Source: Gammaproteobacteria bacterium
GTDB taxonomy: Bacteria; Pseudomonadota; Gammaproteobacteria; UBA4575
Reading direction: 5' to 3'
Assembly (NCBI GenBank): GCA_965221955.1
Contig: CBDCTA010000018.1
Span: 160,001 to 224,000 of the forward strand
DNA length: 64,000 bases
Shown here: positions 39,727 through 47,251 of the stretch, piece after piece
How the letters are laid out: the number at the start of each line of letters is the position of its first letter
How positions within the stretch are numbered: position 1 is the stretch's first letter
Made by a program: the position numbers and the translations under genes
The notes under the pieces: generated by a model
Database searches by the model: none
Told to the model about the DNA's origin: nothing
What the model saw: only the letters and a program-made list of their open reading frames with translations

Positions 39727-40407
39727 ATGCAATCCTATTCAGAGTTAATAGCAAAGGCTCTTGACAATCTTAAGCACATTAAATTTTATCGAAGAAATAT
39801 ATACCAGCTCTACATGGTGTGTTTATACTGCACGATACTAGAGCTTTCTGAAACACTAATTTTTCTTACAAAGAATAAGAAAGGTGTGGGAATACCAATT
39901 TTGAGCCGTACATTACTTGAAGCGTATGTGGACTTAAAAAATTTAGAGCTAAATCCAGATTATTGCTACAGCATGGACGCAAGCAATATCAAAGAGTGGT
40001 TGAGAATAGCAACAGAAGCCGGAACTCTTGAAAATGATTATCTAAGAAAGTTAGCGGATCATGAAGATTTAAATGATCAAATCACTGAGTGGAAGAAAGA
40101 ACTAGAGCAACTAAGTCAAAATGGCCATCAAGTTTTAAATCAACTTGAAAAATTTCGTAATGTCGAGATGCAGGAGGAATATCGATCTATTTATAATTTT
40201 TTGTGCTGCGAAACTCACAACAATATTAGGTCGTTACAAAAACGACACATACAATTCATCAATGATGAGGCTGATTTTAAAGTGGTCGCATTTACTGAAT
40301 TTATAAGTAACGAAGATGATAGTTATTTAAATATATGCCAAGAGCTCCTTGAAGAAGCGTGCAAGGCAATCCATAGTACTTTCAAAACTGGCAGATGGAA
40401 TGATTAA
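39727..40407 (+). CDS. DUF5677-like hypothetical protein
   Basis: ILSRTLLEAYVDL and YRSIYNFLCCETH patterns; AGGAG RBS. Confidence 0.6.
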   Translation: MQSYSELIAKALDNLKHIKFYRRNIYQLYMVCLYCTILELSETLIFLTKNKKGVGIPILSRTLLEAYVDLKNLELNPDYCYSMDASNIKEWLRIATEAGTLENDYLRKLADHEDLNDQITEWKKELEQLSQNGHQVLNQLEKFRNVEMQEEYRSIYNFLCCETHNNIRSLQKRHIQFINDEADFKVVAFTEFISNEDDSYLNICQELLEEACKAIHSTFKTGRWND

Positions 40408-40547: not shown

Positions 40548-40624
40548 TGGTGGCTATGGTTGGACTTGAACCAACGACCCCAGCATTATGAATGCTGTGC
40601 TCTAACCAGCTGAGCTACATAGCC
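40548..40624 (-). tRNA. tRNA-Met (CAT), elongator type
   Basis: GGCTATGTAGCTCAGCTGGTTAGAGCACAGCATTCATAATGCTGGGGTCGTTGGTTCAAGTCCAACCATAGCCACCA. Confidence 0.96.
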
Positions 40625-43169: not shown

Positions 43170-44144
43170 TTAATCCATATATAGGGTGCTCACAGATTCT
43201 TCTTGATTGATTCGACGCATGGATTCAGCCACCAAACCCGAGACTTCCACTTGACGGATCCGAGTGCAGTGTGCGGCTTCTTCGTGGAGCGGGATTGTAT
43301 CAGTTACCACCAATTCATCCAGCACAGAATTCTCAATATTTTCTACCGCCTTACCTGAAAGTACAGGGTGAGTGGCATAGGCTCTAACACTCTTTGCCCC
43401 ATGCTCTTTAAGCGCTCTAGCAGCTGCACATAAGGTACCCGCCGTATCGACTAAGTCATCAATGATGTAGCAGGATTTACCCTCAACCTCACCGATGATA
43501 TGCATGACTTCTGACTTATTCGCCTCAGGACGACGTTTATCGATAATCGCAAGATCTGCATCGTCTAATCGTTTTGCCAATGCACGAGCACGTACTACAC
43601 CACCCACATCCGGGGACACCACAATTAAGTCAGGGTCTTTACGTTTATACACATCACCCAACAAAATGGGTGAGGCGTAGATATTGTCAACAGGAATATC
43701 AAAAAAGCCTTGGATTTGATCAGCATGCAAATCAACCGTCAGCACGCGATCCGCTCCTGCAACCTGCAGCAGGTTGGCTATCACTTTGGCGGAGATGGGT
43801 ACTCTAATTGAGCGCACTCGACGATCTTGTCGCGAATAACCAAAATAAGGCATAACGGCTGTAATACGCTCCGCAGAAGAACGTTTTAACGCATCGATCA
43901 TAATCAACAATTCCATGACATTGTCATTAGTAGGCATACATGTAGGCTGCACCACAAAAACATCTTTGCCGCGTACATTTTCTTGAATCTCTACTTGCAC
44001 TTCGCCATCACTAAATTGACTAATAAATGCTTTACCAATTGGAATGTTTAAGTCATCGCAAATATTTTGCGCAAGTGTTGGATGCGCATTTCCAGAAAAC
44101 ACCATTAAGTTACTATCAGCAGGTAAGGTTCTTTGACCAATCAT
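43170..44144 (-). CDS. prs: Ribose-phosphate pyrophosphokinase
   Basis: [36 protein letters not shown]. Confidence 0.98.
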
Positions 44145-44445
44145 AGTGTGTGCTGCCTTAACATTAAAAAGTCGAAAAGATAATTAATAATTTGGCTGGG
44201 CCGGCATGCCTCATGCTATACCGGGACCTAGCTTTTTCAATTAGTTATCGGAAGCTCCAAGTCTGTTAACTGCTTCCTGATCCCATAAGTGTATTTTAAG
44301 TATTGTTAATAAAGTTGTGTATAGTATATCAGCGCTATTCTTTATTAAAACCAAACATTAAAAATTAAGCTAAATTCATTTCATTAGTAGTACCAAAAAT
44401 TGAAGAAATATTTTTCAGAAAAAGACTAGTGAACTATGAGATAAA

Positions 44446-45579
44446 TTATTGGAAAGGCTCACCAGCTTTTTCAAGCACTGCTTTTACAGCATCTACTATT
44501 TGTTCACAGTATCTTGAATTTAGATGAAAATATGTTGGCAGTAAACCTTCGCCTTCATACCGAAAAGTAATTGGTTTATCCGTTGTCCTATACTCTTGTA
44601 ATGTTACGCAATGAGGATCAATGTCTGGTTGTGTAGTATTTACACGAATGTGGGTAGCAAAGTGTGAAGCATTCATGTCTGGTATTTCGGCTAAAACTTC
44701 TTCCTTACTTGGTTGTGGCGAGTTATTCCAATTATGATCAACAGGCGGAATTAAATAGACTGCAGAGCGCTTATATTCTGCATCTGCATTTGGAGTTGCT
44801 GGAGGATCAGAGAAATCAAGTATCCTAATTACTAAGAAATCATTCCAATAATCTACTTTCTTAAAAATTGGTACTAATCCAATACCTTCTTCTGGTCTAT
44901 AAACATGATTAACATAAAGAATGTCAGTAATTTTTGTAATACGATTATTTTGCCTTATTGCTAATTCATATCCACCGCCAAATGCAAGCTGAGGTCCAAT
45001 GCCACTAATATCATAAAACCACATTCTTGCAGCAGTGGTAATTAAACGACTATACGACTTATTCCATTTATCCTCAGAAGTAAAACTAGATTCTATTTCT
45101 AATGTCTCCATTATAAAATCTTCTCCAGTTCCAGCAGCTACAGCATTTTCACCCCAAGGTGTAATGAATTTTTTTGAAGCACTTCCGAAATGTTTCAAGC
45201 TCCACCTATCATCATTTGCAATAACAGCAATTAATGAAACATCTTTTAAACCAAGATTATCAACACAAAGTAGTACAGAACTTAACTGCTCAAAATCTGT
45301 AGGATCAATTTCATTGTATTTTTTGCGAATAGCTTTAATTGCAGTTTTCGCTTCAATCAAACTTCCTGCCCATCCGATCATCATATGTGGGCCAATACTA
45401 TTTAGCTTCTGCTGGAAATCAGTAAAGTAGTGTGTATCCCATCTTATTGGTGTATCTACCGATTGTTGTCCTGAGACAGGTAAAGTTACATTTTTATTTG
45501 GTGGAATAGTTGAAGAGATCATAATATCCCCTAGAAGACAGGGAATATCATTATCAAGATAACCAACCACTACTGTCAT
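44446..45579 (-). CDS. Putative Ntn-hydrolase, proteasome-beta/HslV-like fold with C-terminal extension
   Basis: After Met removal: Thr1, Gly5, Asp17; QKL..I...MMIGWAGS; AAGTG; FGGG. Confidence 0.6.
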   Translation of the reverse strand: MTVVVGYLDNDIPCLLGDIMISSTIPPNKNVTLPVSGQQSVDTPIRWDTHYFTDFQQKLNSIGPHMMIGWAGSLIEAKTAIKAIRKKYNEIDPTDFEQLSSVLLCVDNLGLKDVSLIAVIANDDRWSLKHFGSASKKFITPWGENAVAAGTGEDFIMETLEIESSFTSEDKWNKSYSRLITTAARMWFYDISGIGPQLAFGGGYELAIRQNNRITKITDILYVNHVYRPEEGIGLVPIFKKVDYWNDFLVIRILDFSDPPATPNADAEYKRSAVYLIPPVDHNWNNSPQPSKEEVLAEIPDMNASHFATHIRVNTTQPDIDPHCVTLQEYRTTDKPITFRYEGEGLLPTYFHLNSRYCEQIVDAVKAVLEKAGEPFQ

Positions 45580-45601
45580 TTATATTAGAAGCCCTACTAA
45601 T

Positions 45602-46147
45602 CTAGCCAATTTTTATATCCCAACCAAACTCATAAACAGGATTATCGTTTTCATGAACACTTACAATCATTTGTCTTTTGAATTTTCCAGTTCCTTCATC
45701 AGCTTCCATTGCTGATGTTGTTTGTTTTACATCGAATTTTGGAAATCTATCTAGCATATTTAAATTAGACAGTTCTCTAAATATAGCTTCAAGACATAAA
45801 TCTAATTCGTCCCATGTAAATGTTTCTGATATTTCATGACCTACATCATTTCTTCGATCTCTCCATTTATCAATATCATCATAATCTTTTAGCAGGCTTT
45901 GATTATTTAATTCTTGAAGTCGATGAAATAATTTTGGGTTAGGATTTTCAATTGTTATGTTTTGATTTTTTATGTATTCAACCAATACTTTATCTAAAAA
46001 CGAAACACTTCTAATTAAAAGTCCAGATACAATTGCACTATCAAGTTCCGCGATTCTCATTCCATGGTTGTTATGCCCTATCCAGTAATAATTGCGGGCT
46101 ATAACCACATCTATTAGTAAATTGTTCCATTCTTTAGGAATATTCAT
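45602..46147 (-). CDS. Putative HEPN-domain protein
   Basis: Helical pattern with IDKWRDRRNDVGHE (R-x4-H) and upstream LIRSVSFLDKVL helix. Confidence 0.62.
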   Translation of the reverse strand: MNIPKEWNNLLIDVVIARNYYWIGHNNHGMRIAELDSAIVSGLLIRSVSFLDKVLVEYIKNQNITIENPNPKLFHRLQELNNQSLLKDYDDIDKWRDRRNDVGHEISETFTWDELDLCLEAIFRELSNLNMLDRFPKFDVKQTTSAMEADEGTGKFKRQMIVSVHENDNPVYEFGWDIKIG

Positions 46148-46252
46148 GCAGAATTTATGGAGTCTGCAGGGTGGGTATCACTGAATCCTGCGTTTCTTGC
46201 AGACTTCACTGTGGATAAGTCTAAAATCTTCAATAAAATCAATGAGTTATAG

Positions 46253-46327
46253 TGGCTGGGCCGGCAGGATTCGAACCTGCGAATGCCGGGATCAAAACCC
46301 GGTGCCTTACCACTTGGCGACGGCCCA
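46253..46327 (-). tRNA. tRNA-Gln (TTG)
   Basis: TGGGCCGTCGCCAAGTGGTAAGGCACCGGGTTTTGATCCCGGCATTCGCAGGTTCGAATCCTGCCGGCCCAGCCA. Confidence 0.97.
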
Positions 46328-46381: not shown

Positions 46382-47251
46382 CTATGCGCAATTATACTCA
46401 CTTGGCAAAAAAGCAGGCGACTGATTTAAGCCTTTTACAACATAAGCCGCAAACTCTTTTGTACATTCTTTAGCGATATTGTCTGCTTGCTGTTTTGATG
46501 AACAACGTGCAAATAATGCACTCCCCGATCCTGTCAAACGCGGCGAAGCATACTGCATTAGCCATTGAAATGCTCGTTCCACTTCTGGCTGGCGACGCGC
46601 GATAGGCTCAAATACATTCTGAGTTTGATCCAAATCGGATAGCTTCTCACCTCTTAACGGCAAGAAGTCGCGTATTTTGAGCGGCGCGCAATTACGTGTC
46701 AAATCTGGATCAGCAAACATTTGCTGAGTATTCAAATGTACATTTGGATACACCACAATAAACCAAGATTCTTCTGTAGAAGCCGGTGTAAGCTGCTCGC
46801 CTATGCCTTCCACCCAACAAGACTGCCCGCGTATAAATACAGGCACATCCGCACCTAAGCACTCACCTATTTGCTCAAGCTCTGCTTGCTCTAGCCCACA
46901 ATTCCACATTTTATTAAGTGCCAATAAAGTAGTCGCAGCGTCTGAGCTACCCCCTCCCAATCCTGCACCGAGAGGAATGTTTTTCCTCACTTGTATCTCT
47001 ACACCTTGTTTTACTTCTAACTGATCTTGTAGCAGTAATGCTGCTTTTACACATAAATCATCTTGTGGCTGAATCGTTGCATTAGAGTTTTCACAACTTA
47101 TATTGGAATCCGAACGCAAACAAAACGTGAGCTGATCACATAGGTCTATCAGCTGAATTACACTTTGCAATAAATGGTAACCATCCTCTCGCTGCCCAAC
47201 GATGTGCAAAAAAAGATTTAACTTTGCAGGTGCAAGCCAGGTTTGCATCAC
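46382..47251 (-). CDS. ispE: 4-diphosphocytidyl-2-C-methyl-D-erythritol kinase
   Basis: APAKLNLFLHI, DGYHLLQS, GAGLGGGSSDAA, GADVP, LTGSGS. Confidence 0.97.
   Translation of the reverse strand: MMQTWLAPAKLNLFLHIVGQREDGYHLLQSVIQLIDLCDQLTFCLRSDSNISCENSNATIQPQDDLCVKAALLLQDQLEVKQGVEIQVRKNIPLGAGLGGGSSDAATTLLALNKMWNCGLEQAELEQIGECLGADVPVFIRGQSCWVEGIGEQLTPASTEESWFIVVYPNVHLNTQQMFADPDLTRNCAPLKIRDFLPLRGEKLSDLDQTQNVFEPIARRQPEVERAFQWLMQYASPRLTGSGSALFARCSSKQQADNIAKECTKEFAAYVVKGLNQSPAFLPSEYNCA

Follow-up and report, generated by a model that had tools for sequence, protein, structure and literature searches.

A cargo-only islet at a tRNA-Gln 3' end carrying a candidate proteasome-fold enzyme and a HEPN-like protein

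We analysed a stretch of 64,000 nucleotides (the window) from the Gammaproteobacteria bacterium assembly GCA_965221955.1 (lineage UBA4575; contig CBDCTA010000018.1, forward-strand positions 160,001 to 224,000), in which a short islet with two genes adjoins the 3' terminus of a tRNA-Gln gene. The tRNA (anticodon UUG) lies at 46253–46327 on the minus strand (ARAGORN; Rfam tRNA model, 66.3 bits). The last 14 nucleotides of its 3' end, TGGCTGGGCCGGCA, occur as exact direct copies at 44193–44206 (the left, attL-like core, 48 bp away from where the left flanking open reading frame, ORF, starts) and at 46253–46266 (the right copy, within the tRNA). The 14-mer occurs nowhere else in the whole 2,693,489-base assembly; the backwards-read control gave none. 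The islet measures 2,046 bp, or 2,060 bp with one repeat copy included. Between the copies there are two ORFs of at least 50 amino acids with homologues, both on the minus strand and separated by a 22-bp spacer (45580–45601). Gene 1 (45602–46147) encodes a HEPN-like candidate RNase of 181 amino acids, and gene 2 (44446–45579) a 377-amino-acid protein that is a candidate proteasome-beta-like hydrolase of the N-terminal nucleophile (Ntn) type with threonine as Thr1. The remaining ORFs listed inside the islet are short overlapping frames. No recombinase or integrase gene is present in the ORF list of the islet, and the cargo consists of the two genes only. The islet has a GC content of 33.7% (gene 1, 30.6%; gene 2, 35.6%), compared with 38.8% for the window and 44.7% and 43.8% for the left and right flanking ORFs; 4.2% of 2,046-bp windows have a GC content as low. 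Coordinates, composition and ORF list confirm what a first-pass annotation of the sequence had described, namely a 14-bp duplication of the tRNA-Gln end on either side of two AT-rich genes that share an orientation, are separated by 22 bp and are accompanied by no integrase.

The non-coding parts of the islet are small. Upstream of gene 1, the 105 bp between its start codon and the tRNA end (46148–46252, minus strand) presumably hold the promoter; a promoter scan was no better than shuffled sequence (9 found, 9.7 expected). Downstream of gene 2 is a tail of 239 bp (44207–44445, minus strand) with no ORF longer than 37 amino acids, no Rfam match and an RNA fold no better than shuffles (z = 0.60). 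At the left edge of this tail, just inside the repeat, the islet sequence ATACCGGGACC (44207–44232) resembles ATGCCGGGATC in the tRNA body (46267–46300). This may be a decayed, longer copy of the tRNA carried by the element, or chance.

The same site was found without the islet in relatives and in environmental data. The left flanking gene (43170–44144, minus strand, 324 amino acids) is one that from its sequence we take to be prs (ribose-phosphate pyrophosphokinase). A 93.5–94.5% identical protein lies beside tRNA-Gln in three genomes of the same genus (G008, G009 and G013), and an 87% identical one in G001. The right flanking gene (46382–47251, minus strand, 289 amino acids), presumably ispE to judge from its sequence, has homologues that flank the tRNA in relatives. 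The distance from tRNA-Gln to the prs-like gene was 31–127 bp in seven relatives. In G008 and G013 this spacer is 48 bp, equal to the distance from the left repeat to the start of the prs-like gene in the window, and the spacers align. The strongest evidence comes from a 174-nucleotide contig of run X4, a marine metagenome of another study (P2), which joins position 44192 directly to 46253. Exactly 2,060 bp are skipped, and there is no mismatch over 134 nucleotides on one side of the joint and 40 nucleotides on the other. The contig is short and its 40-nucleotide side is tRNA sequence conserved in the genus; the 134-nucleotide side is not conserved. The run covers the flanks at 100% identity and the islet not at all. 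Since the X4 contig joins the two positions without mismatch, a near-identical strain with a precise empty site exists in nature, and the islet is polymorphic in a natural population. Because at the empty sites of G008 and G013 the end of the tRNA occupies the position of the left repeat copy, and because of the X4 joint, the repeat is beyond chance. A search of 40 relatives, including 14 of the same genus, turned up neither islet gene. The search for an empty tRNA-Gln–prs site, proposed in the first-pass annotation, was thus successful, and its view of the locus as a tRNA-anchored, horizontally acquired islet stands: the islet is a discrete and recent insertion at the tRNA-Gln 3' end.

We considered the tRNA-Gln site as an insertion hotspot and rejected the idea. 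Four relatives have larger gaps between the tRNA and prs, but these hold ordinary genes and no integrase (G022 by Pfam, G014 and G007 by eye, G011 by gap size alone), and the larger gaps are a difference in gene order. The source genome contains four tyrosine-recombinase matches, all on contigs other than that of the islet. Its only phage-type integrase match, a frame of 437 amino acids on contig C29, has no tRNA beside it in the 3.5 kb examined. Two of the other matches (C14:9472–9993 and C23:9235–9756) have an identical score and the same frame length of 310 amino acids, which would fit either a duplicated element or contig redundancy; the estimated contamination of the assembly is 4.3%. The islet could be what is left of a larger island, or it could have been mobilized in trans, the latter being a guess. 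Tycheposons, elements of marine bacteria, are reportedly inserted at tRNA 3' ends, bordered by a short repeat of the tRNA end, present in some strains and absent from others, and small in cargo. The islet is similar in its insertion at a tRNA 3' end, its short repeat, its polymorphism between near-identical strains and its small cargo; it differs from tycheposon-type islands in having neither an integrase nor another mobility gene. Tycheposons are one example of tRNA-targeting integrative islands and cargo-only remnants (bioRxiv 10.1101/2020.12.28.424599). The islet offers a clear-cut natural case of a 2-kb insertion at a tRNA gene that consists of cargo alone, with the filled and the empty site both present in environmental data.

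Gene 2 starts with MTVVVG and has an aspartate at residue 18, which is position 17 after removal of the methionine. QKL (57–59), GWAGS (69–73), AGTG (149–152) and FGGG (200–203) follow. All the motifs quoted for both genes in the first-pass annotation are present at those residues. A word-indexed search gave six close relatives of the protein at 44–59% identity. A profile built from close relatives was run against a library of 1.84 billion cluster representatives (clusters at 50% identity) and matched 804 proteins at E ≤ 0.001, 277 of them at E ≤ 1e-10. The family representatives are nearly all 350–400 amino acids long and are matched from their first residue. For conservation we aligned 122 of 155 sequences, 33 having been dropped as fragments or because the match did not begin at the first residues; the aligned members share about 20% identity with the protein of the window. 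Nearly invariant in the 122 are T2 (119, plus 2 with Ser), G17 (118), D18 (122), Q57 (117), K58 (121), W70 (112), G72 (116), A77 (115), G150 (122), Ser or Thr at 151 (117), G152 (119), G201 (122), G202 (116), E205 (119), K216 (116) and Y244 (121). This selection favoured proteins that start at the match, and the starts were hence also counted without selection. A start of [MVL][TS] was found in 124 of 139 proteins of at least 330 amino acids; six of the other 15 carry the signature 4–24 residues inside an apparently over-called start, and most of those remaining begin downstream of the signature. Residues ~216–377 (~160 amino acids) make up an extra C-terminal region that is also conserved (K216, K241, Y244, L249 and P279). 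No fused or longer form was present among 7,998 candidates, which is weak evidence.

The profile of the 122 sequences (A3), compared with the sequences of the PDB, yielded 27 rows at E ≤ 10; proteasome or HslV chains account for 22 of these and for all 15 with E below 0.01, the best being proteasome alpha7 (3.9e-4), with HslV at 1.3e-3. In statistical terms the sequence link is modest. The alignment places the QK...AWAG stretch of gene 2 on RK...AFAG of proteasome alpha7 and on HslV. A narrower profile of 11 sequences again returned HslV first (E 0.12); profiles A1 and A2 produced chance-level rows only against the same sequences. The Atlas model of the homologue P0004 (54% identical; predicted template-modelling score, pTM, 0.83) has three unnamed clusters of the same family as its nearest neighbours, followed by an archaeal proteasome beta subunit. 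The match to the latter is good enough for a name to be assigned (183 aligned residues, TM 0.41 by query and 0.60 by target), and eukaryotic beta and archaeal alpha subunits come next. These data are consistent with the assignment in the first-pass annotation, which had recognized proteasome-beta and HslV landmarks in gene 2. By alignment, the protein carries these catalytic landmarks, conserved across a large family, and has an insertion of ~24 residues between the Asp and the Lys. Profile and model together make it likely that residues 1–215 form a proteasome-like Ntn domain. In one relative, a frame of 193 amino acids (L061; G018:C3:54200-55500), starting M-S-T-I-V-A-V, gave a second, weak Pfam Proteasome match. 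It is unlike HslV and unlike the Anbu-like proteins seen in four other relatives, and may be another small proteasome homologue.

Gene 1 contains RNDVGH at residues 99–104 (RRNDVGH at 98–104). Seven close homologues were found at 41–49% identity, and W95, R96, R98, R99, N100, V102, G103 and H104 are invariant in all eight sequences. The stretch R99-N-D-V-G-H104 is an Rx4H motif with Asn after Arg and matches the HEPN definition, Rx4-6H with a polar residue after the R (PMC3710099, available text). No curated HEPN model was reached above threshold (HEPN_Cthe2314 in Pfam, E 0.093 for gene 1). Across the eight members, sub-threshold Pfam matches were to HEPN_RiboL-PSP in three and HEPN_Cthe2314 in two, with a best E of 0.013. 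In the Atlas model of the homologue P0010 (pTM 0.78), the nearest structures are DUF4145 clusters (TM 0.52/0.66 over residues 1–132) together with NTase_sub_bind/HepT-like clusters; by features the model lies near RiboL-PSP-HEPN and RnlA clusters. Its named neighbours all belong to the HEPN clan and all fall below the naming bar. With the motif invariant in 8/8 sequences and no named neighbours other than HEPN-clan families, the HEPN-type motif seen by the first-pass annotation is substantiated, and gene 1 is likely to be a HEPN protein. The helical part comprises approximately residues 1–132 and is followed by an extra tail of ~50 amino acids (133–181). One metagenomic homologue (L024, 552–1150) is split over two frames near position 740, by either a frameshift or an assembly error.

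Gene 1 resembles the HEPN RNases of the DUF4145 and RiboL-PSP types in having an R-N-x3-H motif within a helical protein of HEPN size. It differs from known HEPN proteins in its own 50-residue tail, in reaching no Pfam HEPN model and in the tiny size of its family (seven close homologues). HepT systems have an MNT partner, which gene 1 lacks. DUF4145 genes occur in operons with restriction-modification (R-M) systems, according to the available text of PMC3710099. RAZR is a DUF4145-type single-gene abortive-infection protein and differs from gene 1 in its zinc-finger domain (PMC13017515, available text).

It could be argued that the two ORFs and the repeat are chance features and that nothing at this locus is functional or mobile. 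The lack of matches in curated libraries and the promoter scan fit this argument, but both ORFs have full-length homologues at 41–59% identity, invariant residues recur in the hundreds of distant relatives of gene 2, and a repeat unique in the genome marks the exact borders of a presence/absence polymorphism. We regard this explanation as already refuted. Neither protein matches a named defence system: PADLOC-DB 2.0 gave 0 families for both at E ≤ 10. The first-pass annotation had not recognized the pairing from a named system either.

The nearest counterparts of gene 2 in the literature are proteasome homologues, whose diversity in bacteria proved in 2021 to be much greater than had been assumed (PMC8665760). 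In that survey, which we cite from the portions available to us, Fuchs, Alva and Lupas described 22 new families of proteasome homologues. The catalytic set of the proteasome beta subunit is given there as Thr1, Asp17, Lys33 and Gly47. Gene 2 shares with proteasome beta, HslV, Anbu and BPH the Asp, the Lys, the oxyanion Gly and the GSG-like and GG loops, and its profile has the modest link to solved proteasome and HslV chains given above. Its Thr directly follows the Met without a propeptide, as is true of all proteasome homologues except most beta and HslV subunits (PMC8665760). Similar additions are known from several of the 22 families. A C-terminal domain of unknown fold is found in RPC, DAH, FC4 and 'DGH', and an insertion before the Lys strand, at the site seen in gene 2, in PMI-5, PMI-6 and connectase (PMC8665760). 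Gene 2 differs in size, with ~370 amino acids for its family compared with about 180–250 for known proteasome homologues. Since members have been in nr since at least 2012 and the active-site residues are kept, the gene 2 family is probably among the 22. The accessions named for those families included none of the gene 2 cluster members that we looked up. From the breadth of phyla and the size, our guess is PMI-4. Connectase, an archaeal enzyme of methanogens, shares with the layout proposed for gene 2 a proteasome-like core and an insertion close to the active site, and some of its variants carry a C-terminal domain as well; it acts as a specific enzyme rather than as a degradation barrel (PMC7980362). 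It lacks helices H1/H2 (PMC8665760), and we saw no sequence match between it and gene 2.

The gene 2 family has a sparse, patchy distribution, with matches in 2 of 400 genomes sampled from the phylum, 1 of 399 from the class and none of the 40 relatives. The class count rests on a locus in an unpublished genome (L056 in G459). This locus has two in-frame TGA codons and a match that covers model positions 43–331, and may be a decayed copy. Members nonetheless span several phyla and occur in Alphaproteobacteria, Cytophagales, a planctomycete, Silicimonas and on a cyanobacterial plasmid. Six genomic contexts of homologues were readable, and in all six proteins T2, D18, K58, G72, G150, G152 and G201–G202 are kept. 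Four of the six lie beside restriction- or STAND-type genes. In L020 a MazE-like gene is upstream and a PDC-S36/type IV restriction-like (REase) protein downstream of the homologue, and in L022 a gene for an SH3-domain protein is upstream and one for an HNH protein downstream. The homologue in L023 is convergent with the gene of a STAND NTPase of 1,425 amino acids that has an LmuA-like N-terminus. On the Oscillatoria nigro-viridis plasmid NC_019763.1 (L055), the homologue WP_015211639.1 is embedded in a type I R-M operon, where it occupies the place between hsdS and hsdR, beginning 1 bp past the end of hsdS and overlapping hsdR by 20 bp. It adjoins a multiubiquitin/E2/ThiF/DUF6527 cluster. The same plasmid region (26579–43736) is a dense defence island that also packs an ImmA/HTH pair, a SprT-like metalloprotease in the R-M operon, a DUF4258 gene and a second type I M/S gene.

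PrrC is an abortive-infection gene embedded in a type I R-M operon. The placement of the plasmid homologue between hsdS and hsdR is PrrC-like, in a single record; the copy in the window is beside no R-M gene. For the 22 families, the available text of Fuchs et al. reports no context suggesting a function, in contrast to this one member of the gene 2 family inside a type I R-M operon (PMC8665760). Taken together, the association of the family with conflict genes, meaning genes of the anti-phage or abortive-infection type, is suggestive.

A different reading of gene 2 is that it has no role in defence and is a connectase-like specific processing enzyme or ligase, the islet being the remnant of a decayed island whose two genes have no joint meaning. 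There is precedent in connectase itself, a monomeric proteasome homologue that acts as a sequence-specific ligase (PMC7980362; PMC8665760), and the 22 families, for which Fuchs et al. had no context pointing to a function, fit this reading too. Two of the six contexts are solitary among housekeeping genes, and the islet has neither an integrase nor any other island gene. On the other hand, four contexts are beside restriction- or STAND-type genes, one of them translationally packed inside the type I R-M operon. Conflict genes typically show such a rare and patchy distribution, and also base compositions like that of the L019 copy, which is AT-rich although its genome is GC-rich; the partner in the islet is, moreover, a HEPN-type protein. 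We consider a non-defence role somewhat improbable.

The first-pass annotation had gone further and proposed a two-gene system in which a threonine protease gates an RNase. In such an obligate pair, of a defence or toxin–antitoxin-like kind, the protease would sense or process a protein and thereby switch the HEPN RNase on or off. The arrangement of the islet lends itself to this idea. The genes have a common strand, and the 22 bp that separate them contain no terminator-like site. They moved jointly as the sole cargo, both are missing from the 40 relatives searched, and the tail of gene 1 might serve as a cleavable lid. The distribution of the homologues does not bear it out. A gene 1 profile search found no homologue in any of the five other genomes that carry a gene 2 homologue, although the same model scores E 6.7e-88 on the source genome, so the search works. 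Nor was gene 1 a neighbour in the five gene 2 contexts scanned with the profile or in the annotation of the sixth (L055), and one gene 2 homologue (L021) stands alone. The single gene 1 context that could be fetched (L024, 1,319 bp) has no gene 2 homologue. Among the recorded contigs of close homologues of the two genes no size is shared, the further and shorter contigs of P0010 being left out. The absence of a fused form also speaks against an obligate pair, weakly. A lack of adjacency between homologues had been named beforehand, in the first-pass annotation, as one of the results that would refute the idea, and in the contexts examined, a small sample, they were never adjacent. A complex prediction for the two proteins scored 0.00 in both runs ('no answer', no controls) and is evidence neither way. 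The evidence on pairing comes from five genomes, six gene 2 contexts and one gene 1 context. In this sample the pairing is not conserved. Because gene 1 is missing from the gene 2 genomes and contexts, we disfavour the obligate pair, which we think unlikely, and prefer two independent cargo genes: the two are probably separate accessory genes. Of the earlier interpretation the mobile islet therefore stands and both fold assignments are probably right, whereas the two-gene mechanism is unsupported.

The most likely explanation, to which we give a probability of roughly 0.5, is an integrase-less islet that entered by site-specific recombination at the tRNA-Gln 3' end and carries members of two unrelated, sporadic families that act as independent conflict genes. 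In our proposal gene 1 would be a small HEPN-type RNase, two copies of which pair and form the active site from R99, N100 and H104, by analogy with other HEPN proteins. The tail of 50 amino acids would keep the RNase silent until a trigger arrives. An initiator methionine that precedes threonine is generally removed. In gene 2 this would expose the Thr as the nucleophile, aided by Asp18 and Lys58, and the active site would be shaped by Gly72 together with the G-[ST]-G and GG loops. The insertion and the C-terminal region may choose the substrate or sense the trigger. The enzyme would then cut or join specific proteins, unlike a general degradation machine.

Several observations weigh against this interpretation or limit it. 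The structural evidence on both folds is indirect and comes from Atlas models of the homologues P0004 and P0010. Neither gene 1 nor gene 2 protein has a significant match in Pfam, NCBIfam, PADLOC or PHROGs. The threshold of the Pfam Proteasome model (PF00227) is not reached by gene 2, a difference from the known systems, and the model has a weak match in only 1 of the 122 members (E 0.0052). The spacing between Asp18 and Lys58 is 40 residues, compared with 16 in proteasome beta. Alignment of A3 with the HslV of relatives by hhalign was weak (P 0.008–0.07; reversed control, 0.26), with the Thr, Asp, Lys, AWAG/GFAG stretch and GSG in register. With four Anbu-like proteins it was no better than the reversed control (P 0.28 and 0.24 respectively). 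Likewise, the gene 1 profile (A2) aligned weakly with 21 DUF4145 domains from genomes of the class (P 0.061), in a register that places R96/N100/H104 on R..GN...H. Two gene 2 homologues are solitary among housekeeping genes (L019 and L021); the latter, the closest genome-borne homologue (54% identity), is alone beside an Lrp/AsnC regulator. The association with conflict genes depends on six contexts, which are not a statistic. No relatives of either protein were found in phage records or viral contigs, and the plasmid search gave a single record for gene 2 and none for gene 1. Finally, few contexts lie behind the independence of the two genes, and their spacing, common strand and joint transfer would also fit a cooperating operon.

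A bolder version of the explanation, which we put forward tentatively, is that the gene 2 family comprises widespread and unrecognized single-gene effectors of the anti-phage or abortive-infection type. In these the insertion and the C-terminal domain would sense a phage product, and the islet would newly combine one such effector with a HEPN RNase in a minimal, integrase-less and strain-variable cassette. If this is true, the family would represent the first use of the proteasome fold in an immune protease (or protein ligase). The literature searched, with most subscription journals outside the search, contained no report that connects proteasome homologues with phage defence or with HEPN partners. 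The islet points to one of the diverse proteasome-homologue families, or to a neighbour of them, that is large, has the full catalytic set, is rare and patchy, and in four of six contexts stands beside restriction or STAND genes. Because the family is large and patchy, keeps its catalytic set and has conflict-gene contexts, a proteasome-fold enzyme in phage defence is a concrete and cheaply testable hypothesis. The lead worth following is the gene 2 family as a candidate proteasome-fold defence enzyme. Should the defence reading fail, the islet keeps its value as a sharply bounded case of two orphan families.

Elsewhere in the window, low-GC stretches at ~32.7–34.2 kb and 38.2–38.7 kb were considered as further islands and rejected, as they hold ordinary genes (a two-component system and cytochrome oxidase). 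A gene at 39727–40407 (plus strand) encodes a DUF5677 protein of 226 amino acids (Pfam E 8.1e-18) and is located just before a tRNA-Met (40548–40624, minus strand), in a stretch of ~34% GC. This is possibly a further small accessory gene linked to a tRNA.

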